Assembly: GCF_056746865.1 (NCBI RefSeq)
Contig: NZ_CM163382.1
Length of the DNA stretch: 64,000 nt
Reading direction: 5' to 3' (one strand)
The notes under the pieces are model-generated. The model searched no databases. It worked only from the letters and a program-made list of their open reading frames with translations, and was not told the origin of the DNA. Made by a program: the position numbers and the translations under genes. This document shows, piece after piece, positions 20,386-53,162 of this stretch. Numbering within the stretch: the first letter of the stretch is position 1; each line of letters opens with the position of its first letter.

Positions 20386-20730
20386 ATGATGTGGGACGTC
20401 GAGACAACGGAGACTTTCGACAACTGGTTTGATGCCCAGACTGTTGCGCTGAAAGAAGATTTACTTGCTGCAATGCTGATTCTTGCTGAGTATGGCCCAC
20501 AGTTGGGCAGACCCTTTGCGGATACGGTTAATGATTCACAGTTTTCAAATATGAAAGAATTACGCGTCCAACATCAGGGAAACCCGGTACGTGCTTTTTT
20601 TGCTTTCGATCCTGCGCGCCGTGGCATTGTATTATGTGCGGGTGATAAAACGGGGTTAAATGAGAAAAAGTTTTATCGCGATATGATCAAGCTCGCTGAT
20701 TCTGAATACCGTAAGCATCTGAAAAAGTAA
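20386..20730 (+). CDS. Type II toxin, RelE/ParE superfamily (HigB-like 'addiction module killer' family)
   Basis: 114 aa with a C-terminal GIVLCAGDK...KKFYRDMIKLAD region reminiscent of HigB-like killer proteins. It lies 9 nt upstream of a small HTH gene, and the toxin-first order is typical of higBA. Confidence 0.7.
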   Translation: MMWDVETTETFDNWFDAQTVALKEDLLAAMLILAEYGPQLGRPFADTVNDSQFSNMKELRVQHQGNPVRAFFAFDPARRGIVLCAGDKTGLNEKKFYRDMIKLADSEYRKHLKK

Positions 20731-20739
20731 GGAACGATA

Positions 20740-21039
20740 ATGGCTACTCTAAAAGAACTGATGGCAAAGCAAAGCCCTGAAAGCCAGGTGCGTATTGCGG
20801 CAAAAGTTGAGGAAATGCGCCAGACCATCGCCTTGCATCAGCTGAGAGAAGAACTCAATATTTCGCAAACGGAAATGGCGGCAGCGATGGGCATTAAGCA
20901 ACCGACTCTTGCAAAAATGGAGCAGGCAGATAACGATCCTCGGTTGTCTACGCTAAAACGCTATGTTGCGGCTTTAGGTGGGGAATTGAGTATCGACGTT
21001 AAACTGCCGAATGGTAAGAGAATTGCATTTCAGATTTAA
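20740..21039 (+). CDS. Type II antitoxin, XRE/HigA-family helix-turn-helix protein
   Basis: 99 aa with an HTH motif (ISQTEMAAAMGIKQPTLAKME), tightly coupled to the upstream toxin gene. Confidence 0.75.
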   Translation: MATLKELMAKQSPESQVRIAAKVEEMRQTIALHQLREELNISQTEMAAAMGIKQPTLAKMEQADNDPRLSTLKRYVAALGGELSIDVKLPNGKRIAFQI

Positions 21040-28735: not shown

Positions 28736-29659
28736 ATGAGAAAGACGGGCAACCGCCGCGAGCGTGGGGCAAAAACCACCATCGTCCGGCGGCAGATCAA
28801 AAAAAATCATGCCGGGCATCACGGCGGGGCGTGGAAGGTGGCGTTCGCCGACTTTACTTTGGCAATGATGGCGCTATTTATGACGCTGTGGATTGTCAAC
28901 AGCGTCAGTAAATCCGAGCGTGAAAGCATTATCGCCGCGCTGCACGGGCAGTCGATTTTTAACGGTGGCGGGCTGTCGCCGTTAAATAAAATCAGACCGT
29001 CTCATCCGCCAAAACCTGCCACCGTGGCGGTGCCGGAAGAGACGGAGAAAAAAGCGCATGACGTCAACGAGAAAACGGCGCTGCTGAAGAAGAAATCCGC
29101 TACTGAGCTTGGCGAGCTGGCAACCAGTATCAACACCATTGCCCGTGATGCGCATATGGAAGCGAATCTGGAGATGGAGATTGTTCCCCAGGGACTGCGC
29201 GTGCTGATTAAAGATGACCAGAACCGCAATATGTTTGAACGCGGCAGCGCGCAGATTATGCCGTTCTTTAAAACTTTGCTGGTGGAGTTAGCACCGGTTT
29301 TTGATTCGCTCGACAATAAGATCATCATCACCGGGCATACCGATGCGATGGCCTACAAAAACAATATCTACAACAACTGGAACCTTTCGGGCGATCGCGC
29401 GCTTTCAGCTCGTCGGGTGCTGGAAGAGGCCGGAATGCCGGAAGATAAAGTGATGCAGGTAAGTGCAATGGCGGACCAGATGCTGCTGGATGCCAAAAAT
29501 CCGCAAAGCGCGGGCAACCGGCGCATTGAGATTATGGTGCTGACCAAAAGTGCGTCCGATACGCTGTATCAATACTTTGGTCAGCATGGGGATAAAGTGG
29601 TGCAACCGCTGGTGCAAAAGCTGGATAAGCAGCAGGTGCTTTCGCAGCGAACGCGTTAA
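28736..29659 (+). CDS. lafU: Flagellar motor stator protein MotB-like (OmpA-type peptidoglycan-binding domain)
   Basis: The ATG at 28736 follows the lafT stop. It has a TM helix (FADFTLAMMALFMTLWIV) and a C-terminal OmpA-like motif (NWNLSGDRALSARRV). Confidence 0.85.
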   Translation: MRKTGNRRERGAKTTIVRRQIKKNHAGHHGGAWKVAFADFTLAMMALFMTLWIVNSVSKSERESIIAALHGQSIFNGGGLSPLNKIRPSHPPKPATVAVPEETEKKAHDVNEKTALLKKKSATELGELATSINTIARDAHMEANLEMEIVPQGLRVLIKDDQNRNMFERGSAQIMPFFKTLLVELAPVFDSLDNKIIITGHTDAMAYKNNIYNNWNLSGDRALSARRVLEEAGMPEDKVMQVSAMADQMLLDAKNPQSAGNRRIEIMVLTKSASDTLYQYFGQHGDKVVQPLVQKLDKQQVLSQRTR

Positions 29660-29697
29660 ATGCTGAATCTTTATGCATTTCTCAAACTCTGAAATCA

Positions 29698-29713
29698 CTG
29701 TATACTTTACCAG
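29698..29713. promoter_or_regulatory. LexA (SOS) box upstream of dinB
   Basis: CTGTATACTTTACCAG matches the CTG-N10-CAG SOS box, about 17 nt upstream of the dinB ATG. Confidence 0.85.
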
Positions 29714-29729
29714 TGTTGAGAGGTGAGCA

Positions 29730-30785
29730 ATGCGTAAAATCATTCATGTGGATATGGACTGCTTTTTCGCAGCGGTGGAGATGCGCGACAATCCTGCCCT
29801 GCGCGATATCCCTATTGCTATTGGCGGCAGCCGCGAACGTCGGGGGGTGATCAGCACCGCCAATTATCCCGCGCGTAAATTTGGCGTACGTAGCGCTATG
29901 CCGACAGGGATGGCGCTCAAATTTTGCCCACATCTCACGCTGCTTCCAGGGCGCTTTGACGCCTACAAAGAAGCCTCAAATCATATCCGCGAAATTTTCT
30001 CGCGCTATACCTCGCGCATTGAACCGTTATCACTGGATGAAGCCTATCTCGACGTCACCGATAGTGTGCATTGCCACGGTTCTGCGACCCTCATCGCCCA
30101 GGAAATCCGCCAGACAATCTTCAACGAGCTGCAACTGACGGCGTCTGCGGGCGTTGCGCCGGTAAAGTTTCTCGCTAAAATCGCTTCCGACATGAATAAA
30201 CCCAACGGTCAGTTTGTGATTACTCCGGCAGAAGTTCCGGCATTTCTGCAAACCTTACCGCTGGCAAAAATTCCTGGCGTCGGCAAAGTCTCGGCGGCAA
30301 AACTGGAAGCGATGGGGCTGCGGACCTGCGGTGATGTGCAAAAGTGTGATCTGGTGACTCTGCTCAAACGTTTTGGCAAATTTGGCCGCATTTTGTGGGA
30401 GCGTAGTCAGGGGATTGACGAGCGCGACGTTAACAGCGAACGGTTGCGAAAATCCGTCGGCGTGGAACGCACGATGGCGGAAGATATTCATCACTGGTCT
30501 GAATGTGAAGCGATTATCGAGCGGCTGTACCCGGAACTTGAACGCCGTCTGGCAAAGGTAAAACCTGATTTACTGATTGCCCGTCAGGGAGTGAAATTAA
30601 AGTTCGACGATTTCCAGCAAACCACTCAGGAGCACGTCTGGCCACGGCTGAATAAAGCTGATCTAATCGCCACCGCGCGTAAAACCTGGGATGAACGCCG
30701 CGGCGGGCGCGGTGTGCGACTGGTGGGGCTGCATGTGACGTTGCTTGACCCTCAAATGGAAAGACAACTGGTGCTGGGATTATGA
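29730..30785 (+). CDS. dinB: DNA polymerase IV (Y-family translesion polymerase)
   Basis: 351 aa with the Y-family N-terminus [26 protein letters not shown]. Confidence 0.95.
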
Positions 30786-30836
30786 TGTATACTATTATGT
30801 CTATTCTGGTGTGCATTATTATGAGGGGATCACTGT

Positions 30837-31130
30837 ATGCATCGAATTCTTGCGGAAAAATCGGTCAATATCACTGAGTTACGTAAAAACCCAGCTAAAT
30901 ACTTTATTGATCAACCAGTTGCGGTTCTTTCTAATAATCGCCCCGCAGGATATCTCTTAAGTGCCAGCGCATTCGAAGCGTTAATGGACATGCTTGCTGA
31001 ACAAGAGGAGAAAAAGCCTATAAAGGCGCGCTTCCGTCCAAGTGCTGCAAGATTAGAGGAAATTACACGCCGAGCTGAAAAATATCTTAATGATATGACG
31101 GATGATGATTTCAATGACTTTAAGGAATAA
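30837..31130 (+). CDS. yafN: Antitoxin YafN (Phd/YefM family)
   Basis: 97 aa, immediately upstream of the yafO reading frame. Confidence 0.85.
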   Translation: MHRILAEKSVNITELRKNPAKYFIDQPVAVLSNNRPAGYLLSASAFEALMDMLAEQEEKKPIKARFRPSAARLEEITRRAEKYLNDMTDDDFNDFKE

Positions 31131-31132
31131 GG

Positions 31133-31531
31133 ATGCGGGTATTCAAAACAAAACTCATTCGCCTGCAACTTACAGCAGAGGAACTTGAAGCGTTAACGGC
31201 GGATTTTATTTCCTATAAGCGTGACGGTGTTTTGCCAGATATATTTGGTCGCGATGCACTCTACGACGACTCGTTTACCTGGCCATTAATCAAATTTGAG
31301 CGAGTTGCTCATATTCATCTGGCAAATTAGAATAATCCATTTCCGCCACAGTTGCGCCAATTCAGCAGAACGAATGACGAAGCGCATTTGGTATATTGTC
31401 AGGGTGCGTTTGATGAGCAAGCATGGTTGCTCATTGCCATTCTGAAACCTGAACCTCATAAACTGGCTCGAGATAACAACCAAATGCATAAAATTGGGAA
31501 AATGGCAGAAGCGTTTCGCATGCGTTTTTGA
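31133..31531 (+). pseudogene. yafO: yafO toxin gene interrupted by an in-frame amber codon at codon 66
   Basis: The frame stops at TAG (31328..31330). The same frame then stays open for 66 more codons to TGA at 31529..31531, giving the 132-codon length expected for YafO. Confidence 0.6.
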
Positions 31532-31540
31532 ATTTATATT

Positions 31541-31993
31541 ATGAATAACATACATATAAGAAACTATCAGCCTGGCGATTTTCAGCAACTATGCGCTATT
31601 TTCCTTCGAGCGGTTACGATGACTGCCAGTCAGCACTATTCTCCACAGCAAATTGCCGCCTGGGCGCAGATTGACGAATCTCGCTGGAAAGATAAACTCG
31701 CGAAATCACAAGTGCGGGTTGCAGTCATTAATGCACAACCGGTTGGTTTTATTTCCCGCATTGAACATTATATCGATATGTTATTTGTTGACCCTGAATA
31801 CACCCGCCGTGGGGTTGCCAGCGCTTTGTTAAAACCTTTGATTAAGTCTGAATCCGAACTTACGGTGGACGCCAGCATAACCGCAAAGCCCTTTTTTGAA
31901 CGTTATGGTTTTCAGACAGTTAAGCAGCAGTGCGTTGAATGCCGGGGAGCGTGGTTTACTAATTTTTATATGCGATATAAACCGCAACATTAA
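31541..31993 (+). CDS. yafP: GNAT-family N-acetyltransferase YafP
   Basis: 150 aa in the dinB-yafNOP operon position. Confidence 0.8.
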   Translation: MNNIHIRNYQPGDFQQLCAIFLRAVTMTASQHYSPQQIAAWAQIDESRWKDKLAKSQVRVAVINAQPVGFISRIEHYIDMLFVDPEYTRRGVASALLKPLIKSESELTVDASITAKPFFERYGFQTVKQQCVECRGAWFTNFYMRYKPQH

Positions 31994-32171
31994 ATCCAGC
32001 TTGCAATGAAAATAACGCCCGCCTAGTATGTGCGCGTTTTCTTATTCCACAAACTGCAAGGAGGTAAATCATGACAAATCCTTTATCAATGACTCTTTGC
32101 AGACCTTTCCAGGATTAATTCTTTTTTTCTTGCCCTGGATTCGTCTGCCATTTCCTGATTTTTATTCATAA

Positions 32172-33323
32172 ATGGAATGGTTTATGGGCAAATATATTCG
32201 TCCCTTATCCGATGCGGTATTTACCATCGCATCTGATGACCTGTGGATCGAGAGTTTAGCGATCCAACAATTACACACCACGGCAAATTTACCCAACATG
32301 CAGCGCGTAGTAGGGATGCCAGATTTACATCCCGGACGCGGCTACCCGATTGGCGCAGCGTTCTTCTCCGCAGGCCGTTTTTACCCGGCACTGGTCGGCA
32401 ATGATATCGGCTGCGGCATGGCGCTATGGCAAACAGATATTCTCGCTCGCAAATACAACGCCGATAAGTTTGAAAAGCGATTATCAGCTTTGGATGACGT
32501 TGCTGAAGAAAGCTGGCTGGAGGAAAACCTGCCGTCAGCATTTGCACAGCATCCGTGGCGCAGCTCGCTTGGCTCTATCGGTGGCGGAAACCACTTCGCA
32601 GAACTGCAACAAGTTGATGAAATCATCGACGCTGAACTGTTTGCACTGGCAGGTCTGGATGCGCAGCATCTGCAACTGCTGGTTCATAGCGGCTCGAGGG
32701 GGTTGGGGCAGTCTATTTTACAGCGGCATATTGCCTCGTTTTCGCATCATGGTTTGCCTGAAGGCAGTGACGACGCGCTACGGTATATTGCGGAACATGA
32801 CGATGTGCTAGCGTTTGCGCGTATTAATCGCCAGATGATTGCTTTGCGCATAATGCAACAAGTTAAGGCCACCGGAAGTCCGGTTCTGGATGTGGCGCAT
32901 AACTTTGTTAGCGCGTGCCAAATCGGCGATCAACAGGGTTGGTTGCATCGTAAAGGTGCCACGCCGGATGACAACGGTCTGGTGATTATTCCCGGTTCAC
33001 GCGGTGATTACTCCTGGCTTGTACAGCCTGTTGCGAACGAAAAAACGCTCCACTCGCTGGCGCATGGGGCAGGGCGTAAATGGGGGCGCACCGAGTGTAA
33101 AGGGCGTCTGGCAGCGAAATGCACGGCGACGCAACTCTCGCGTACTGAACTTGGCAGTCGGGTAATTTGTCGCGATAAACAACTCATCTTTGAAGAAGCG
33201 CCACAAGCCTATAAATCGGCTGAAAGCGTGGTGCAATGTCTGGTGCAAGCCGGTTTAATTATTCCTGTCGCGCGGCTGCGTCCGGTGCTAACGCTCAAAA
33301 ACAGTGGAGGGAAAAAAGGATGA
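32172..33323 (+). CDS. rtcB: RtcB-family RNA ligase paralog (partner of PrfH)
   Basis: 383 aa with RtcB-like metal-binding segments ([14 protein letters not shown]; [10 protein letters not shown]). Its stop overlaps the prfH start in an ATGA arrangement. Confidence 0.85.
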
Positions 33324-33934
33324 TCTTGCTACAACTCTCCTCAGCGCAGGGGCCGGAAGAATGTTGCCTCGCAGTGAAAAAGGCGCTGGACAGGTTGATT
33401 AAAGAAGCTACCCGACAAGACGTCGCGATAACGGTGCTGGAAACAGAAACGGGTCGCTACTCTGACACGTTGCGTTCAGCGCTGATTTCTCTGGATGGCG
33501 ATAACGCATGGGCATTAAGCGAAAGTTGGTGCGGCACTATCCAGTGGATTTGTCCGAGTCCGTATCGGCCTCATCATGGGCGCAAAAACTGGTTTCTGGG
33601 CATTGGGCGTTTTACTGCTGATGAGCAGGAACAATCGGATGCAATCCGTTATGAGACGCTGCGTTCGTCGGGGCCGGGCGGTCAACATGTCAATAAAACC
33701 GACTCGGCGGTACGCGCCACGCATCTGGCATCCGGGATTAGCGTGAAGGTTCAGTCAGAGCGCAGCCAACATGCCAACAAACGGCTGGCGCGATTGCTGA
33801 TTGCCTGGAAGCTGGAGCAACAGCAACAGGAAAATAGCGCGGCGCTGAAATCGCAGCGGCGAATGTTCCATCACCAGATTGAACGTGGCAACCCGCGACG
33901 AACGTTTACAGGGATGGCTTTTGTCGCTGTGTAA
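33320..33934 (+). CDS. prfH: Peptide chain release factor homolog PrfH (GGQ motif)
   Basis: 204 aa with [16 protein letters not shown], the class-I release-factor GGQ motif. The start overlaps the rtcB stop. Confidence 0.85.
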
Positions 33935-34811: not shown

Positions 34812-36269
34812 TTACTTCGCCGGAATTTCTTTCAGCAGTTCAGTCAGTAGTGTCCAGTAATGACCTACGCTTTCGATGTGAACTTGCTCATCCGGAGAGT
34901 GTGGACCGGTGATGGTTGGCCCGATAGAAACCATGTCCATTTCCGGATACGGTTTTTTGAACAGACCACATTCCAGGCCCGCGTGGATAATCTGGATGTT
35001 CGGCGTCTTGTTGAACAGACGCTGATAAGTTTCACGTACCAGATGCATCACCGGAGAATTAGCGTCCGGCTGCCAGCCAGGATATGCGCCTTTCGCTTCG
35101 GTTTTCGCGCCAGCCAGTTTACCCAGCGAATCCAGCATGCTCACCACGTAGTCTTTACCGCTGTCGATCAGAGAACGGATCAGGCAGTGAATTTCTACGT
35201 TATTGTCAGTCATGGTCACCACACCGACGTTCAGGGAGGTTTCCACCACACCTTTTGCCACATCGGAATTGCGGATCACACCGTTCGGGGTGGCGTTCAG
35301 CAGACGAATAAAGGTATCGCGAGATTTCGCAATCAGGGCAGCTTTATCGTTCGCAACAGAGTCCAGCAGCAATGCCAGATTTTTCTCTTTCTCTGCCAGC
35401 TCGTTTTTCAGGATTTCCTGATAGGTATTCACCAGAGATTTCAGGGCGTCGACTTTATCAGCTGCGACAGCAATGGTCGCAAAGGCTTCACGCGGGATGG
35501 CGTTACGCAGTGTGCCACCGTTGAAATCGATAAGGCGCAGGTCCAGCTCTTCTGCATGACCCGCCAGGAAGCGCACCAGCAGTTTGTTGGCATTACCCAG
35601 GCCAACGTGGATTTCACCGCCGGAGTGACCGCCTTTTAGACCTTTTAAGGTTAACTTGAAGGTTTCAAAACCAGCTGGAACTGCTTCACGATCTAAATGC
35701 AGGTTGGAGGTGAAGTCGATACCCCCCGCGCAACCCATGTAGATTTCACCTTCCTCTTCGGAGTCGGTGTTAATCAGAATATCAGCCTGCAACCAGTTGC
35801 TCTGTAAGCCAAAAGCACCATCCATACCGGCTTCTTCGGTCATGGTCAGCAGCACTTCCAGCGGGCCGTGAACCACGTTTTCGTCAGCCAGAACCGCCAG
35901 CGCAGACGCCATACCAATGCCGTTATCCGCACCCAGCGTGGTGCCGCGCGCTTTAACCCATTCGCCATCAATATAAGGCTGGATAGGATCTTTAGTGAAG
36001 TCATGCACGGTGTCGTTATTTTTCTGCGGCACCATATCGAGGTGGGCCTGCAAGACGACCGGTTTACGATTTTCCATACCTGCGGTAGCAGGTTTACGAA
36101 TCAGGATATTACCTACCTGATCGCGTTCGACATGGAAACCTTTCTCTTTTGCCCAACCAACAATGTATTCAGCGAGTTGCTCTTCATGATAGGACGGGTG
36201 AGGAATAGAACAGATTTTGGCAAAAATATCCCACAGCGGCTGTGGAGATAATTGAGACAGTTCAGACAC
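34812..36269 (-). CDS. pepD: Cytosol nonspecific dipeptidase (aminoacyl-histidine dipeptidase)
   Basis: 485 aa with M20-family metal-binding motifs, in the conserved pepD-gpt-frsA-crl-phoE-proBA neighbourhood. Confidence 0.93.
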   Translation of the reverse strand: MSELSQLSPQPLWDIFAKICSIPHPSYHEEQLAEYIVGWAKEKGFHVERDQVGNILIRKPATAGMENRKPVVLQAHLDMVPQKNNDTVHDFTKDPIQPYIDGEWVKARGTTLGADNGIGMASALAVLADENVVHGPLEVLLTMTEEAGMDGAFGLQSNWLQADILINTDSEEEGEIYMGCAGGIDFTSNLHLDREAVPAGFETFKLTLKGLKGGHSGGEIHVGLGNANKLLVRFLAGHAEELDLRLIDFNGGTLRNAIPREAFATIAVAADKVDALKSLVNTYQEILKNELAEKEKNLALLLDSVANDKAALIAKSRDTFIRLLNATPNGVIRNSDVAKGVVETSLNVGVVTMTDNNVEIHCLIRSLIDSGKDYVVSMLDSLGKLAGAKTEAKGAYPGWQPDANSPVMHLVRETYQRLFNKTPNIQIIHAGLECGLFKKPYPEMDMVSIGPTITGPHSPDEQVHIESVGHYWTLLTELLKEIPAK

Positions 36270-36529
36270 GTTAAGTCTCCTTGTCGATCACCCGCAAAAC
36301 AGTATTGCAGGTCACAGGGTTAGCAGAAAATGTTGTCAACACAAGACAGGCTTGCGAGATATGTTTGAGAATACCACTTTATCCCGCGTCAGGGAGAGGC
36401 AGTGCGTAAAAAGACGCGGACTCATGTGAAATACTGGTTTTTAGTGCGCCAGATCTCTATAATCTCGCGCAACCTATTTTCCCCTCGAACACTTTTTAAG
36501 CCGTAGATAAACAGGCTGGGACACTTCAC

Positions 36530-36988
36530 ATGAGCGAAAAATACATCGTCACCTGGGACATGTTGCAGATCCATGCACGTAAACTCGCAAGCCGACTGAT
36601 GCCTTCTGAACAATGGAAAGGCATTATTGCCGTAAGCCGTGGCGGTCTGGTACCGGGTGCGTTACTGGCGCGTGAACTGGGTATTCGTCATGTCGATACC
36701 GTTTGTATTTCCAGCTATGATCACGACAACCAGCGCGAGCTTAAAGTGCTAAAACGCGCAGAAGGCGATGGCGAAGGCTTCATCGTTATTGATGACCTGG
36801 TGGATACCGGTGGCACTGCGGTTGCGATTCGTGAAATGTATCCAAAAGCGCACTTTGTCACCATCTTCGCAAAACCGGCTGGTCGTCCGCTGGTTGATGA
36901 TTATGTTGTTGATATCCCGCAAGATACCTGGATCGAACAACCGTGGGATATGGGCGTCGTATTCGTCCCGCCAATCTCCGGTCGCTAA
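36530..36988 (+). CDS. gpt: Xanthine-guanine phosphoribosyltransferase
   Basis: 152 aa with the PRPP-binding motif [14 protein letters not shown]. Confidence 0.95.
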
Positions 36989-37079
36989 TCTTTTCAACGC
37001 CTGGCACTGCCGGGCGTTGTTCTTTTTAACTTCAGGCAGGTTACAATAGTTTCCAGTAAGTATTCTGGAGGCTGCATCC

Positions 37080-38324
37080 ATGACACAGGCAAACCTGAGC
37101 GAAACCCTGTTCAAACCCCGCTTTAAACATCCTGAAACCTCGACGCTAGTTCGCCGCTTTAATCACGGCGCACAACCGCCTGTGCAGTCGGCCCTTGATG
37201 GTAAAACCATCCCTCACTGGTATCGCATGATTAACCGTCTGATGTGGATCTGGCGCGGCATTGACCCACGTGAAATCCTCGACGTCCAGGCACGTATTGT
37301 GATGAGCGATGCCGAACGTACCGACGATGATTTATACGATACGGTGATTGGCTACCGTGGTGGCAACTGGATTTATGAGTGGGCCACCCAGGCGATGGTG
37401 TGGCAACAAAAAGCCTGTGCGGAAGAAGATCCGCAACTCAGTGGTCGTCACTGGCTGCATGCGGCTACGTTGTACAACATTGCCGCCTATCCTCATCTGA
37501 AAGGAGATGACCTGGCCGAGCAAGCGCAGGCTTTGTCAAACCGCGCCTATGAAGAGGCCGCTCAGCGTCTGCCGGGCACCATGCGGCAGATGGAGTTTAC
37601 CGTACCCGGCGGTGCGCCCATCACCGGCTTTTTGCATATGCCGAAAGGCGATGGCCCGTTCCCGACAGTATTAATGTGTGGTGGTCTGGATGCGATGCAG
37701 ACGGACTATTACAGCCTGTATGAACGTTATTTTGCGCCGCGCGGCATTGCGATGCTGACTATTGATATGCCGTCGGTGGGCTTTTCTTCAAAATGGAAGC
37801 TCACCCAGGACTCCAGCCTGTTGCATCAGCACGTCTTAAAGGCGCTGCCTAACGTACCGTGGGTAGATCACACTCGCGTCGCGGCCTTTGGTTTCCGTTT
37901 CGGCGCTAACGTTGCCGTGCGTCTGGCATACCTTGAATCGCCGCGTCTGAAAGCGGTTGCCTGTCTTGGTCCGGTAGTTCATACCCTGTTGAGTGATTTT
38001 AAGTGCCAGCAACAGGTGCCGGAAATGTATCTTGACGTTCTGGCGAGTCGTTTGGGTATGCATGATGCTTCCGACGAAGCGTTACGCGTGGAGTTGAATC
38101 GCTATTCATTAAAAGTGCAAGGATTGCTGGGACGTCGTTGCCCAACGCCAATGTTATCAGGCTACTGGAAGAACGATCCGTTCAGCCCGGAAGAGGACTC
38201 ACGCTTAATCACCTCATCAACTGCTGACGGTAAATTGTTAGAGATCCCATTTAACCCGGTGTATCGGAATTTTGACAAAGGTCTTCAGGAAATCACCGAC
38301 TGGATCGAAAAACGATTGTGTTAA
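37080..38324 (+). CDS. frsA: Esterase FrsA (fermentation/respiration switch protein)
   Basis: 414 aa alpha/beta-hydrolase, in conserved synteny. Confidence 0.9.
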
Positions 38325-38783
<459 letters not shown>

Positions 38784-38821
38784 GTGAAATGTGCCGGATG
38801 CATCACATCCGGCAATATCCA

Positions 38822-39877
38822 TTAAAACTGATAGGTCATGCCAACCGCGACAATATCATCATTATTGATGTTCAGCTTATTATCGCTATCCAGTTGGTTT
38901 ATTTTATAATCAACAAATGCCGACATATTTTTGTTGAAATAATACGTAGCACCAACATCGATATAATTGACCAGATCTTCATCACCGATGCCTTCAATAT
39001 CTTTCCCTTTCGATAAGACATAACCCAGCGACGGACGCAGACCAAAGTCAAACTGGTATTGGGCGACCGCTTCAAAGTTCTGTGTCTTATTGGCAAAGCC
39101 GCCAGTTATTGGCGTCATTTTGCGTGTTTCAGAATAGAAAGTTGCCAGATAAATATTATTGGCATCGTATTTCAGACCTGTTGCCCATGCTTCTGCACGC
39201 TTGCCTGTGCCACGGCTTTGCAGGTTCTGCTCGTTAGTGCGATCGGAGTTGGTATAGGCCCCACTGATGGCGAAATCGCTGCCACCAAAGTCATATGTCA
39301 ATGACGTACCGAAGCCATCGCCGTTTTGCTTTTTAACGTCGCGGTTTTCGTTTTTCCCTTGATATTGCAGGGTTAAGTTCAGGCCATCGATAACGCCGAA
39401 GAAGTCAGTGTTACGGTAAGTGGCCAGACCGCTGGCGCGTTTGGTCATAAAGTTGTCGGTCTGCGCCGAGGAGTCGCCACCAAATTCCGGGAACATATCG
39501 GTCCAGGCTTCCACGTCATACAGCGCGCCCAGGTTACGACCATAATCGAAAGAACCCAAATCTTTATATTTCAACCCGGCAAAAGCGAGACGCGTTTTTT
39601 GCTGTGCAGTATCACTCTCCGCTTTATTACCGGCAAACTCTGCTTCCCAACGACCATAACCAGTCAGTTGATCGTTAATTTGTGTTTCGCCTTTAAAACC
39701 AAAACGGATATAACTCTGGTCGCCATCTTTACTGTCGTTATCACTCATATAATGCATGGCTTTAACTTTGCCATAGACATCCAGTTTATTACCGTCTTTG
39801 TTATATATTTCTGCGGCCTGTACGGATGCAGATGCCACAATGCCCATCACCACTAATGCCAGAGTGCTCTTTTTCAT
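38822..39877 (-). CDS. phoE: Outer-membrane phosphoporin PhoE
   Basis: Signal peptide [21 protein letters not shown], porin beta-barrel and C-terminal Phe. An alternative start lies 2 codons upstream at 39883. Confidence 0.9.
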
Positions 39878-39950
39878 TTTCATTCCTGATTTTAATTAAC
39901 GCGCGAATATTCAGCGGGAGAGTCCCGTTGAAAACAGGAAAGTTTTTAAC

Positions 39951-39977
39951 CTGAGATTGTTAAAGATATATTACAGA
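39951..39977 (-). promoter_or_regulatory. Pho box (PhoB binding site) in the phoE promoter
   Basis: The minus strand reads CTGTAATATATCTTTAACAATCTCAG, i.e. direct CTGTAAT/CTTTAAC-type repeats upstream of phoE. Confidence 0.7.
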
Positions 39978-40164
39978 TTAATAATATTCTTAAAATGTGG
40001 TAATTTATTAAATCTGTAATAAAAGCGTAAACAACTGCCGCTACGCTTGCTGATCCCGCGCAACAAAACGCCATGCTTTGCTCGCAGATGGTTGGCAACC
40101 GACGACAGTCCTGCTAAAACGTTCGTTTGATATCATTTTTCCTAAAATTGAATGGCAGAGAATC

Positions 40165-41268
40165 ATGAGTGACAGCCAGACGCTGGTGGTAAAACTCGGC
40201 ACCAGTGTGCTAACAGGCGGATCGCGCCGTCTGAACCGTGCCCATATCGTTGAACTTGTTCGCCAGTGCGCGCAGTTACATGCCGCCGGGCATCGGATTG
40301 TTATTGTGACGTCGGGCGCGATCGCCGCCGGACGTGAGCACCTAGGTTACCCGGAACTGCCAGCGACTATCGCCTCGAAACAACTGCTGGCGGCGGTAGG
40401 GCAGAGTCGACTGATTCAACTGTGGGAACAGCTGTTTTCGATTTATGGCATTCACGTCGGGCAAATGCTGCTGACCCGTGCTGATATGGAAGACCGTGAA
40501 CGCTTCCTGAACGCCCGCGACACCCTGCGAGCGTTGCTCGATAACAATATCGTTCCGGTAATCAATGAGAACGATGCTGTCGCTACTGCAGAGATTAAGG
40601 TCGGCGATAACGATAACCTTTCTGCGCTGGCGGCGATTCTGGCGGGTGCCGATAAACTGTTGCTGCTGACCGATCAAAAAGGTTTGTATACCGCTGACCC
40701 GCGCAGCAATCCGCAGGCAGAACTGATTAAAGATGTTTACGGCATTGATGACGCACTGCGCGCGATTGCTGGCGACAGCGTTTCAGGCCTCGGAACTGGC
40801 GGCATGAGTACCAAATTGCAGGCCGCGGACGTGGCTTGCCGTGCGGGTATCGACACCATTATTGCCGCGGGCAGCAAGCCGGGCGTTATTGGTGATGTGA
40901 TGGAAGGCATTTCCGTCGGTACCCTGTTTCATGCCCAGGCGACCCCGCTTGAAAACCGTAAACGCTGGATTTTCGGTGCACCACCTGCGGGTGAAATCAC
41001 GGTAGATGAAGGGGCAACCGCCGCCATTCTTGAACGCGGCAGCTCCCTGTTGCCGAAAGGTATTAAAAGCGTGACTGGCAATTTCTCGCGTGGTGAAGTC
41101 ATCCGCATTTGCAACCTCGAAGGTCGCGATATCGCCCACGGCGTCAGTCGTTACAACAGCGATGCATTACGCCGTATTGCTGGACACCACTCGCAAGAAA
41201 TTGATGCAATACTGGGATATGAATATGGCCCGGTTGCCGTTCACCGTGATGACATGATTACCCGTTAA
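40165..41268 (+). CDS. proB: Glutamate 5-kinase
   Basis: The ATG at 40165 ([16 protein letters not shown]) gives 367 aa with amino-acid kinase and PUA domains. Confidence 0.95.
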
Positions 41269-41279
41269 GGAGCTGGCCG

Positions 41280-42533
41280 ATGCTGGAACAAATGGGCATT
41301 GCCGCAAAGCAAGCCTCGTATAAATTAGCGCAACTCTCCAGCCGCGAAAAAAATCGCGTGCTGGAAAAAATCGCCGATGAACTGGAAGCACAAAGCGAAA
41401 TCATCCTCAACGCTAACGCCCAGGATGTTGCTGACGCGCGTGCCAATGGCCTTAGCGAAGCGATGCTTGACCGTCTGGCACTGACGCCCGCACGGCTGAA
41501 AGGCATTGCCGATGATGTGCGCCAGGTGTGCAACCTCGCCGATCCGGTGGGGCAGGTGATTGATGGTGGCGTACTGGACAGCGGCCTGCGTCTTGAGCGT
41601 CGTCGCGTACCGCTGGGGGTTATTGGCGTGATTTATGAAGCTCGCCCGAACGTGACGGTTGATGTCGCTTCGCTGTGCCTGAAAACCGGTAACGCAGTGA
41701 TCCTGCGTGGTGGCAAAGAAACCTGTCGCACTAACGCTGCAACGGTGGCGGTGATTCAGGACGCCCTGAAATCCTGCGGCTTACCGGCGGGTGCCGTGCA
41801 GGCGATTGATAATCCTGACCGTGCGCTGGTCAGTGAAATGCTGCGTATGGATAAATACATCGACATGCTGATCCCGCGTGGTGGCGCTGGCCTGCATAAA
41901 CTGTGCCGCGAACAGTCGACGATCCCGGTGATCACAGGTGGTATAGGCGTATGCCATATTTACGTTGATGAAAGCGCGGAGATCGCTGAAGCATTAAAAG
42001 TGATCGTCAACGCGAAAACTCAGCGACCGAGCACATGTAATACGGTTGAAACGTTGCTGGTGAATAAAAACATCGCCGATAGTTTCCTGCCCGCATTAAG
42101 CAAACAAATGGCGGAAAGTGGCGTGACGTTACACGCTGATGCAGGTGCACTGGCGCAGTTGCAGACAGGCCCCGCGAAGGTGGTGGCTGTTAAAGCGGAA
42201 GAGTATGACGATGAGTTTCTGTCATTAGATTTGAACGTCAAAATCGTCAGCGATCTTGACGATGCCATCGCCCATATTCGTGAACACGGCACACAACACT
42301 CCGATGCGATCCTGACCCGCGATATGCGCAACGCCCAGCGTTTTGTTAACGAAGTGGATTCGTCCGCTGTTTACGTTAACGCCTCTACGCGTTTTACCGA
42401 CGGCGGTCAGTTTGGACTGGGTGCGGAAGTGGCGGTAAGCACACAAAAACTCCACGCGCGTGGCCCAATGGGGCTGGAAGCACTGACCACTTACAAGTGG
42501 ATCGGCATTGGTGATTACACCATTCGTGCGTAA
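41280..42533 (+). CDS. proA: Gamma-glutamyl phosphate reductase
   Basis: 417 aa aldehyde dehydrogenase-fold protein following proB. Confidence 0.95.
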
Positions 42534-42647
42534 ATAAAACCGGGTGATGCAAAAGTAGCCATTTGATTCACAAGGCCATTGACGCATCGCCCGGTTAGTT
42601 TTAACCTTGTCCACCGTGATTCACGTTCGTGAACATGTCCTTTCAGG

Positions 42648-42723
42648 GCCGATATAGCTCAGTTGGTAGAGCAGCGCATTCGTAATGCGAAGGTCGGAGG
42701 TTCGACTCCTCTTATCGGCACCA
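42648..42723 (+). tRNA. thrW: tRNA-Thr (anticodon CGU)
   Basis: GCCGATATAGCTCAGTTGGTAGAGCAGCGCATTCGTAATGCGAAGGTCGGAGGTTCGACTCCTCTTATCGGCACCA: cloverleaf, T-loop GGTTCGA, encoded CCA end. Confidence 0.92.
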
Positions 42724-42850
42724 TTTAAATCAAGTAGTTACCTCACATTCAATTACACCACATTTTCCTCCTGTGCCGTATTTGTGCCATTGTAACCCTG
42801 GCAATTCATCAAAATACTGTTCTGACATCAGGCAGTGCAGGTGCAGACAT

Positions 42851-43066
42851 TTAAGCCAATTGCTGCCGCCATTCCTTGACGTGGTCAATCAGGGCGCGGA
42901 GCTTTGGTGCAATATTGCGACGCTGTGGGAAATACAGATAGAAGCCCGGAAATTGTGGAAGAAAGTCATCAAGCAGCGATACAAGCTTACCGCTTTCAAT
43001 ATATGGCCTGAAAGTTTCCTGAGTGGCAATTGTTATGCCTGCGCCGGCAAGAGCCAGCCTCAACAT
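42851..43066 (-). pseudogene. Remnant of a LysR-family regulator (C-terminal fragment only)
   Basis: The 71-aa ORF ...LVSLLDDFLPQFPGFYLYFPQRRNIAPKLRALIDHVKEW resembles a LysR C-terminal substrate-binding domain end. No N-terminal HTH portion is present. Confidence 0.4.
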
Positions 43067-43164
43067 CAGACGCAGATCATTCTGCTAATCCCACCGATGC
43101 TTCGGTCTGGAGTGGTAAATTAATATTGGACACAGTTTTATTTTCTCTCTTTTTCGAGGGCTAT

Positions 43165-43431
43165 ATGAACAGGAAGAATACATCCCTAAGCGGTTAATGC
43201 TGGCGTAATCAATAGACCAGCATTAATCACGGATGATTACCAATCAGACAGATATGGTTAAATCGTCGAATTCATAATTAATACTTTTTCTTACGCCGCT
43301 GAACAGCTTGAAAAGGATACATATTTTAAATATCAGTGAAGTGAACAGTTTATTGCCGTTATTAATAGAGATGGAGGAATAAATACGCGTATTCTACTAT
43401 TGCAACAAAAACAACGATGATGATCAGTTTT
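43165..43431. repeat. Copy A of a ~270-bp duplicated segment (homologous to 63041..63193 plus 63890..64000)
   Basis: By eye, roughly 80-90% identity to two separated segments near ykgO/ykgM. In copy A the two halves are contiguous. Confidence 0.75.
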
Positions 43432-43641
43432 CATAATGAAGTAACCTGACAGATATAAAAATGTTGATTGAGGCTCAATGCCCGGATGAAGGTTGTCGAG
43501 GGAGCCAGGTGGTTTTTTCTTTTGGGTGATCTCCATTGCTGGATAGTCCCCTCTTTCTCGCTCAAAGCAGACCCTGGAATTGAACGCAGAGGGACTACCT
43601 GACACAATTTTGCACAGTGAAGAGTCGGTCGTTATTAACGT

Positions 43642-44526
43642 TCAGATTTTCAATGTATCAATGACCATCCGCAGGGCGGGGGAGACGTTGCGATGAGGGT
43701 AATAGAGAAACAATCCCTCCATTCGCAGGCTGTAACGCTGCAACACCCTGATAAGCTTACCGTGTTCTAAATCATCCGCGACCAGTTCAACAGGAACATA
43801 GGCCAATCCGAGGCCCAGCCGGGCTGCTTCTGCTTCCATATAGCTGTCGGATAAGGCCCATTGCCCTTCAGGGCGATGAGTGATTTTTTTATCATCCTGA
43901 TTGAGTTCCCACTGGTATACGCTGCCGTCGGCAAACTGATAGGCGATACAGGGATGCGCCTTTAAATCCGCCGGGGTTTGCGGAAAACCATAGCGACGAA
44001 AATGTTCCGGAGTCCCCACAATTGCCATCTCCATATCGGGCGTGATGCGTACCGCGACCATACCCTGGCCGACTTCAGGCCCCAGGCGGACACCTGCATC
44101 GAATCTTTCCTCGATGATATCGACGAACCGGCTCTCATTTATCAGTTCAAGCCGGATATCAGGATATCGCTGTTTAAATACCGCCAGCTTTGGCAGCAGG
44201 CATTTATCAATCGCGTGCTGGCTGGCATTGATACGCACCGTGCCGGAGGGCGTCTCTCGATAGTGCGCCAGCGTGGCAAGCCCAAGATCTAACATTTCAA
44301 ATCCAGATGCCGTCTTCTGGTAGAGCTGCTCGCCTGCTTGTGTCAGCGACAGTTTACGCGTGGTGCGCACTAGCAGCTGGACGCCGAGCCTTTCTTCAAG
44401 CTCGCGAACAGAACGGCTGACTCCTGACTGAGCAAGACCCAGCCGCTGAGCCGCTGCGGTAAAGCTGCCTTCCCGCACCACCTGCATAAACAGGTACAGC
44501 TCGTTGTAGTTCTCCCTTTTCGCCAT
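43642..44526 (-). CDS. LysR-family transcriptional regulator
   Basis: 294 aa with an N-terminal HTH (FTAAAQRLGLAQSGVSRSVRELEERLGVQLL), divergent from the hydrolase gene. Confidence 0.85.
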   Translation of the reverse strand: MAKRENYNELYLFMQVVREGSFTAAAQRLGLAQSGVSRSVRELEERLGVQLLVRTTRKLSLTQAGEQLYQKTASGFEMLDLGLATLAHYRETPSGTVRINASQHAIDKCLLPKLAVFKQRYPDIRLELINESRFVDIIEERFDAGVRLGPEVGQGMVAVRITPDMEMAIVGTPEHFRRYGFPQTPADLKAHPCIAYQFADGSVYQWELNQDDKKITHRPEGQWALSDSYMEAEAARLGLGLAYVPVELVADDLEHGKLIRVLQRYSLRMEGLFLYYPHRNVSPALRMVIDTLKI

Positions 44527-44691
44527 TGAAACATCCCCCCTTCATGCCGGCAATCTCCGCATTAATTTATAACAATATGGTATTAATCTTAGCATTAATC
44601 GCCCCCTAATCAGCACTAATTCTGCTCATTATAATGACCCCATCAAAGCAAAGCACCGCAGCGTTTTCCGTCGGAAACCTGTATCTCTCTA

Positions 44692-45849
44692 TTGTTTTTT
44701 ATGGGGATTTTTATGAAAGCCTTCACCCGAACGCTAAAAACCGCGATGCCGACCATGCTGCTTTTCGCATCATTAAGTGGAGTCACGACAATGAGTTATG
44801 CTGATTCAACCAATCCTAATGCCCCTGTGTCCATGACAGATAAATGGGATAAAACGTTCGCCGAGAGCCAGAAAGTCGATCACCGTAAAGTCTCGTTCCC
44901 GAACCGATATGGCATCACCTTAGTGGGCGATCTTTACCTGCCTAAAGACCGTGGCGATCGCAAGCTGGCGGCGATTGCGGTCAGTGGGCCATTTGGCGCG
45001 GTGAAAGAGCAATCCAGCGGCTTGTATGCGCAGACGCTGGCGGAACGAGGGTTTGTTACCCTGGCGTTCGATCCTTCTTACACCGGGGAAAGCGGCGGCT
45101 ATCCGCGAAACGTCGCCTCACCGGATATCAACACTGAAGATTTCAGCGCGGCGGTGGATTTCTTAGGGCTGCAAAAAGAGGTAGATCGCAACCGTATCGG
45201 GCTGCTCGGTATTTGTGGCTGGGGCGGCATGGCGCTGAACGACGTGGCGATGGATACCCGCGTTAAAGCGGTAGCTACCAGCGTGATGTATGACATGAGC
45301 CGGGCGATGGGTCATGGTGTGGGGGATGGCAAAGACCGTTATTCTACCGCCGACCGTCGTGCCGTTCTGCAATATCTGAATGAACAGCGCTGGCAGGATG
45401 CGCAGAGCGGAACGTTCGCTCACGGTGGTCATGATATTAATGTCGATAGCAACGGCAAGGTCAGTGCGGGCGAGCGCATTCTGCCAGAAACGCTGCCGGC
45501 AAATCCTCATCCGGTACTGAAAGAGTTCTTTGACTACTATCGCATGCCGCGCGGCTTCCACGAACGTTCCGTTAACTCTACCGGGGCGTGGACGGCAACG
45601 ATGCCGCTGTCATTTATGAATATGCCGCTGTTGAGCTACGCCAGTGAAATCACCATTCCGACGCTGATTGTGACCGGTGAGAAAGCACATTCACGCTATT
45701 TTGCTGAAGATGCTTACAAGGCGGTTGGCAGTAAAGACAAAGAGTTGGTGGTGGTACCAGGGGCAAATCACGTGGACCTGTACGATAACGTGGCCGGAAA
45801 AATACCTTTCGCGAAGTTCGAACAATTTTTCCAGACCAAACTGAAATAA
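44692..45849 (+). CDS. Secreted alpha/beta-hydrolase with a Cys-type nucleophile elbow (dienelactone-hydrolase-like)
   Basis: Signal-peptide-like N-terminus and a GICGWGG (G-x-C-x-G) motif. Confidence 0.65.
   Translation: MFFMGIFMKAFTRTLKTAMPTMLLFASLSGVTTMSYADSTNPNAPVSMTDKWDKTFAESQKVDHRKVSFPNRYGITLVGDLYLPKDRGDRKLAAIAVSGPFGAVKEQSSGLYAQTLAERGFVTLAFDPSYTGESGGYPRNVASPDINTEDFSAAVDFLGLQKEVDRNRIGLLGICGWGGMALNDVAMDTRVKAVATSVMYDMSRAMGHGVGDGKDRYSTADRRAVLQYLNEQRWQDAQSGTFAHGGHDINVDSNGKVSAGERILPETLPANPHPVLKEFFDYYRMPRGFHERSVNSTGAWTATMPLSFMNMPLLSYASEITIPTLIVTGEKAHSRYFAEDAYKAVGSKDKELVVVPGANHVDLYDNVAGKIPFAKFEQFFQTKLK

Positions 45850-51903: not shown

Positions 51904-53162
<1,259 letters not shown>

Follow-up and report, generated by a model that had tools for sequence, protein, structure and literature searches.

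The yafO toxin gene of the dinB operon analyzed here is very probably a lineage-fixed pseudogene of the ST69 dinB-operon haplotype, in which a single G>T change has cost the gene about half of its toxin fold, leaving a non-toxic product and the antitoxin YafN as an orphan. The gene lies within a 64,000-nt stretch of contig NZ_CM163382.1 (hereafter the window), and coordinates refer to the window unless another record is named.

The sequence of events that we propose begins in the ancestor of the Escherichia coli ST69 (phylogroup D) dinB-operon haplotype, where one G>T transversion would have converted the Glu66 codon GAG to the amber codon TAG. Translation on the SOS-regulated dinB-yafN-yafO-yafP mRNA would then halt after 65 residues, the 65-aa product, missing roughly half of the toxin's RelE-like (BECR) fold, would be non-toxic, and the antitoxin YafN would survive as an orphan. 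In the usual order of decay of such modules, the toxin may disappear at any stage, whereas the antitoxin must not go first; an intact yafN beside a dead yafO fits this order.

The dinB operon and the yafO lesion

All four genes of the operon, in the order dinB-yafN-yafO-yafP, are on the plus strand of the window. At the head of the operon, in the dinB promoter, direct reading identifies a canonical LexA (SOS) box of the CTG-N10-CAG form, CTGTATACTTTACCAG (29698-29713, plus strand), and a promoter scan placed a promoter-like site at 29679-29706, overlapping the LexA box; across 29500-32300, the promoter and terminator scan returned no more sites than in shuffled sequence. The operon and its SOS control have been described previously (PMC3105422; PMC2814082). 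The first gene, dinB (29730-30785), encodes an intact DNA polymerase IV of 351 aa, based on its ORF, the Pfam domains IMS, IMS_C, and IMS_HHH, and the RefSeq annotation of the matching genome of strain 118UI. For a core gene, this dinB is unusually divergent, with 44 differences in 1,056 nt (4.2%) from K-12 and 38 (3.6%) from Ecol_316, whereas the dinB genes of K-12 and Ecol_316 differ from each other at only 22 positions.

The antitoxin gene yafN (30837-31130) is intact, as the initial annotation had held, and encodes a 97-aa protein of the Phd/YefM family that matches PF02604 (31.5 bits, against a cut-off of 29.8); in carrier genomes this protein is annotated as WP_000554757.1. It is directly upstream of yafO and co-oriented with it, with 2 nt between the yafN stop codon and the yafO ATG. 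The PGAP name for YafN, “type I toxin-antitoxin system antitoxin”, is inconsistent with its being the protein antitoxin of a type II system. Downstream of yafO, yafP (31541-31993) encodes an intact 150-aa GNAT acetyltransferase, supported by its ORF and by Pfam, and annotated as WP_001059547.1 in carrier genomes.

The ancestral yafO gene of 132 codons extends over 31133-31531, an extent supported by translation, Pfam, alignment to K-12, and the RefSeq label “pseudo, internal stop”. The initial annotation had described a frame that stops at an amber codon after 65 codons and then runs open for 66 more to the expected stop before yafP, and direct reading and translation agree with it exactly: an ATG at 31133 is followed by 65 sense codons and the TAG at 31328-31330 (together the 5′ ORF, 31133-31330), and then by 66 sense codons (31331-31528) and the normal stop TGA at 31529-31531 (together the untranslated 3′ remnant, 31331-31531), with yafP beginning at 31541. 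That a single nonsense codon inactivates an otherwise full-length gene, also claimed there, is upheld by the comparison with a reference yafO that had been proposed as a check. Over 399 ungapped columns, the gene differs from the yafO of K-12 MG1655 at five positions, and the sole disabling difference is G>T at yafO nt 196 (window 31328), which replaces GAG (Glu66) with TAG (E66*). Intact yafO orthologs are present at the same locus in K-12, O157, and Ecol_316.

When codon 66 is restored, the protein scores 135.1 bits against the Pfam family PF13957 (YafO_toxin; cut-off 25) over residues 27-130; in the window, the TAG at codon 66 interrupts the ORF within this domain. The two fragments also pass the Pfam threshold when scored alone, the 65-aa fragment with 36.5 bits (matching profile positions 2-36 of 101) and the 59-aa fragment reported by ORF callers downstream of the stop with 78.4 bits. 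A run of 66 open codons after the TAG would arise by chance with P ~0.02; at the sequence level, the real evidence that this frame is a remnant of yafO is its 99% identity to K-12, rather than the chance probability.

Predicted toxin fold and probable loss of function

A sequence search found no solved structure of YafO on which catalytic residues could be mapped, and an AlphaFold model together with conservation in the family was used instead. The AlphaFold2 model of the repaired protein, built on 57 homologs, has a mean pLDDT of 97.6 and a pTM of 0.91. Among solved structures its best match is HigB2 (probability 0.99, TM 0.47-0.54), followed by YoeB, HigB1, and RelE, all with weak E-values (best 6.7e-3). 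The predicted fold of the repaired YafO is RelE-like, and YafO has been assigned to the BECR fold (PMC11980606).

In the model, the elements before codon 66 are β1 (residues 2-5), two helices (7-12 and 15-31), β2 (38-43), a short helix (51-55), and β3 (59-63), and those after it are β4 (85-90), β5 (97-104), and two C-terminal helices (108-112 and 115-131). The conserved residues of the family are divided in the same way: F25, Y28, K29, F38, G39, D41, H60, and H62 precede the stop, and S/N81, L86, the invariant Y88, the near-invariant H109, A125, and F128 follow it. With these latter elements beyond the TAG, the 65-aa product ends before the last two of the five β-strands, has neither of the C-terminal helices, and is missing half of the family's conserved residues. 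Based on this mapping, the E66* allele is best read as null, and we infer that the 65-aa product has lost its toxicity.

One carrier of the TAG provides a natural genetic test of this reading. Strain EC1 (NZ_CP058574.1), a viable urinary isolate, has a 767-bp IS1 inside yafN (L006 3221-3987), flanked by a 9-bp target duplication, CAAGATTAG, that corresponds to window positions 31048-31056. As a result, YafN keeps residues 1-73 and ends in a 24-residue tail encoded by IS1 in place of its own last 24 residues; in antitoxins of the Phd/YefM type it is the C-terminal part that binds the toxin. Singletary and colleagues reportedly found in 2009 that cells require yafN only if they also have yafO. 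The viability of EC1 despite its disrupted yafN argues that the TAG allele makes no harmful or meaningful amount of active toxin, although the truncated YafN might keep some neutralizing activity, which would weaken the argument. In 51489 and NMBU-W13E19, two other carriers of the TAG, it is yafP that contains IS1.

Distribution of the E66* allele

Of 5,426 complete E. coli genomes, 140 contain an exact copy of a 55-mer centered on the T of the TAG, a query on which megablast cannot seed unless this T is present. The 140 carriers are also the only genomes among the 5,426 that are at least 99% identical to the window over yafN-yafO-yafP, and the next best genomes (O157:H7 and K-12) are ~97.8% identical; no relative of the window haplotype of yafN-yafP falls between 97.8% and 99%. 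The exact 65-aa ORF was found on at least 1,000 public contigs and the 59-aa downstream ORF on 992.

The carriers share one near-clonal dinB-operon haplotype and come from humans, poultry, cattle, wild birds, and water on several continents. The window differs from strain 118UI, typed as MLST 69 and phylogroup D (PMC8900328 Table 2), by one mismatch in 50 kb, from M12 by two SNPs in 22.5 kb, and from a strain named “O15:H18 ST69” by seven differences in 13.9 kb. Differences from RM14516 are mostly in a recombined block at 35-45 kb, and the dinB operon is nearly identical. This block, from pepD to thrW (window 35000-45000), holds most of the 159 differences, with flanks that are almost identical, which suggests that recombination has imported this segment locally within the clone. 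The lesion is thus reproduced in independent genomes of one clade (140 genomes, with near-clonal flanks in the carriers compared), as expected of a lineage-fixed pseudogene. The 3′ remnant has not decayed further, which is uninformative because the clone is too young. For the intact ancestor, a 133-nt segment of the window type with GAG restored had no 133/133 match in complete genomes, a weak result in that two diagnostic SNPs at the ends of the query were trimmed by BLAST.

The initial annotation had named as a refuting circumstance that the 65-aa product is the native form in this lineage. The truncated state is indeed fixed in the lineage; what is fixed, however, is a pseudogene and not a functional short protein.

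The neighborhood of the operon varies among carriers. Directly upstream of dinB, the window has a complete lateral-flagella (Flag-2) cluster from fliF to lafU (1-29659), which is also found in 118UI and EC1. The carriers strain ST69, M12, and RM14516 have instead a Flag-2 deletion like that of K-12, in which flhA/lfhA is truncated, lafU is shorter, and a copy of ISEc31 lies alongside; Flag-2 is thus present in some members of the clone and deleted in others. Window positions 51905-53162 match, in inverted orientation and with 100% identity, the copy of ISEc31 (IS3 family) that adjoins the Flag-2 deletion in the other carriers. Inside the Flag-2 cluster, based on the 118UI annotation, a gene for a toxin of the RelE/ParE family is followed by a helix-turn-helix gene (20389-21039), a second putative toxin-antitoxin pair. 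At 32184-33934, the genes for an RtcB-family RNA ligase and for release factor H (prfH) are intact in the window; both are pseudogenes in K-12 and Ecol_316/A10.

A second TAG haplotype is rare and mosaic (L011 1501-1698, L012 858-1055, and L013 1079-1276; protein P0004, on 13 contigs, with V33I). Its backbone is that of Ecol_316/A10, with an identical dinB and only three differences, at yafO nt 196, 197, and 223. This pattern suggests either one short recombination patch from a donor of the ST69 type or recurrent mutation; a single patch of this kind would explain all three differences at once. One NCBI copy of this allele (EBL5940112.1) is labeled Salmonella enterica. Because the TAG is also found on this mosaic haplotype, E66* extends somewhat beyond the ST69 haplotype, and either recombination or recurrence has played a part in its history.

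Dispensability of yafNO and the cause of fixation

The yafN-yafO module is dispensable, and about half of E. coli lack it. In 2,589 of 5,414 genomes, dinB is directly beside yafP and yafNO is absent (only the yafP part of the query matched); likewise, yafNO is missing from about half of the ECOR strains, for which at least three independent deletions were inferred, with a pair of ATGA sequences as the recombination sites (Gutierrez et al., 2011; PMC3105422); the window contains both of them.

Two other, independent inactivating lesions of yafO were identified in public assemblies, each internal to contigs, each on a K-12-like haplotype, and each with yafN intact upstream. One is C268T (L008-L010 1501-1770), which produces Q90*, also an amber codon (CAG>TAG), and the other is an 11-bp deletion of yafO nt 212-222 that causes a frameshift (L014 and L015 1501-1734). 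Both are far rarer than E66*, occurring on tens of contigs as opposed to at least 1,000.

Codon 66 is tri-allelic among complete genomes: GTG (Val) in ~1,829 records, GAG (Glu) in ~862, and TAG in 140. The Glu66 of K-12 is therefore the minority allele relative to Val66 (L016 3492-3494 for Ecol_316; L002 2497-2499 for K-12). We considered residue 66 as a critical site that had been hit repeatedly by selection, and rejected this, given that Val66 is the majority allele, Glu66 the minority one, and the position tolerates change. The yafO of the Ecol_316/A10 form also carries R75C.

The loss of YafO could itself have been adaptive, in that the ST69 ancestor would have benefited from ridding itself of a toxin induced by SOS; this alternative, raised in the initial annotation as selection against the toxin and in our view possible but doubtful, differs from a pseudogene fixed without such an advantage in its cause only. 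It would account for the several routes by which yafO or yafNO has repeatedly been lost (E66*, Q90*, the 11-bp deletion, and the removal of both genes from about half of E. coli), but recurrent loss is equally expected of a dispensable gene under relaxed constraint. The same TAG on a second backbone, with the three differing sites contained within yafO nt 196-223, could reflect the spread of a null allele by recombination; however, the data are too clonal for dN/dS or for a frequency-based test, and most genomes that have yafO keep an intact gene. For the E66* pseudogene, we infer that fixation came about through relaxed constraint, or because the allele was carried along by the successful ST69 clone, rather than through demonstrated positive selection.

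Readthrough and residual function of the fragments

Amber suppression or readthrough, which the initial annotation had raised as a further interpretation, found no support, with tRNA genes scanned across the 64-kb window. Under this interpretation, the TAG would be decoded at a low level, by a suppressor tRNA encoded elsewhere in the genome or by a near-cognate tRNA, giving a small amount of full-length YafO and an attenuated toxin-antitoxin system; we regard this as very unlikely. The 3′ remnant is intact and in frame, as readthrough would require, but the same would be expected in so young a clone with or without readthrough. Both of the L011-haplotype substitutions downstream of the stop are synonymous. 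The base after the stop is A (TAG-AAT), and TAG-A is not the strongest termination context. The identity of the stop as amber carries no signal, however, given that GAG, like the CAG of Q90*, can reach a stop in one step only as TAG. No suppressor tRNA gene is present in the 64-kb window, where the sole tRNA is Thr(CGT). Retention of an intact yafN in almost all carriers would be in keeping with residual toxin, but EC1 is viable with its yafN disrupted by IS1. In addition, PGAP handles yafO as a pseudogene, and the stop is found in one clonal haplotype and a rare mosaic one rather than being conserved across divergent lineages.

A function for the fragments themselves is highly improbable. The 65-aa N-terminal peptide, or a C-terminal product initiated at TTG 31352, would have to bind YafN or the ribosome, or the two would have to reassemble as a split toxin. 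Both ORFs have been called on about 1,000 contigs, each scores above the PF13957 threshold, and the N-terminal fragment keeps the near-invariant H60 and H62. TTG 31352, the sole early in-frame candidate for a restart and the start of the reported 59-aa product, is only 22 nt past the stop, but no Shine-Dalgarno sequence was found before it or before any later in-frame start in yafO. In the model, the five strands form one sheet, which the break would divide into β1-β3 on one side and β4-β5 on the other. There is no sign of selection on either fragment, and the disrupted yafN of EC1 again argues against residual toxicity. Lastly, a sequencing or assembly error at the TAG in one record, the circumstance that the initial annotation had named as refuting its claim, has a negligible probability; it is refuted by the identical base in 140 complete genomes, obtained independently by many laboratories and from many hosts and countries, as well as on no fewer than 1,000 contigs of public assemblies.

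Existing annotation and comparable systems

RefSeq (PGAP) labels yafO as “pseudo, internal stop” in all five carriers inspected (118UI, strain ST69, M12, RM14516, and EC1). The gene is thus an ordinary lineage-fixed toxin pseudogene that public annotation has already flagged. A literature search on the yafO pseudogene and on yafO in ST69 found no paper that explicitly describes E66*. A published analysis did find two clusters of ORFs with a YafO domain, “YafO (76P)” and “YafO (77P)”, only in ST69 (text and supplementary file 5), and gave them as partners of the chromosomal YafO hit 16H, terming them novel antitoxin markers (PMC10790755). Because each half of the E66* gene passes the Pfam YafO_toxin threshold by itself, 76P and 77P are most likely the two ORF halves of the pseudogene, mis-scored as partners.

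The operon shares its locus, gene order, and LexA box with the K-12 yafN-yafO type II module (YafO UniProt Q47157, PF13957), and yafN, dinB, and yafP are intact; it differs in having TAG in place of GAG at codon 66, such that 65 of 132 residues are encoded and the module no longer has a working toxin. The two-gene dinB-yafP operon of CFT073, all B1 strains, and others (PMC3105422) likewise has no YafO and keeps dinB and yafP, but reached this state by another route, in that yafN and yafO were deleted between the two ATGA sequences and yafP was fused to dinB. Here, in contrast, a point mutation kills only the toxin and leaves an orphan yafN and 200 nt of untranslated yafO remnant, making ~210 nt in all between the premature stop and yafP. 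The Q90* and 11-bp-deletion alleles are closer in kind, each with a single inactivating lesion between an intact yafN upstream and yafP downstream, but involve other mutations on K-12-like haplotypes. The same pattern of a dead toxin and a retained antitoxin is found in the parE-1 pseudogene of CFT073 with its intact higA (PMC7232551), although the toxin family is different and E66* is fixed in a pandemic clone.

Possible effect on yafP and significance

The ATG of yafP begins 9 nt after the normal yafO stop, and no Shine-Dalgarno sequence was found in the 25 nt upstream of it (window 31516-31543). Given these two features, the translation of yafP may depend on coupling to ribosomes that arrive via yafO, and a premature stop would break such coupling. 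A stop located 210 nt earlier could then lower YafP, and a related proposal is that the null allele is advantageous and spreads by short recombination patches of the L011 type; we consider these extensions improbable. If true, a lower level of YafP would change how ST69 handles nitroaromatic genotoxins in the SOS response.

Taken alone, the finding matters little: a further chromosomal toxin gene has decayed next to a surviving antitoxin gene, and half of E. coli do without the module altogether. E66* is nevertheless a clean and stable marker of the dinB-operon haplotype of ST69, a pandemic uropathogenic clone. It also illustrates that ORF-based surveys of toxin-antitoxin systems can mis-score the two halves of a pseudogene as lineage-specific “novel antitoxin partners”, as has apparently happened in the published analysis of ST69. 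Studies of persistence, the SOS response, or toxin-antitoxin biology should not take for granted that ST69 strains have a working YafNO.
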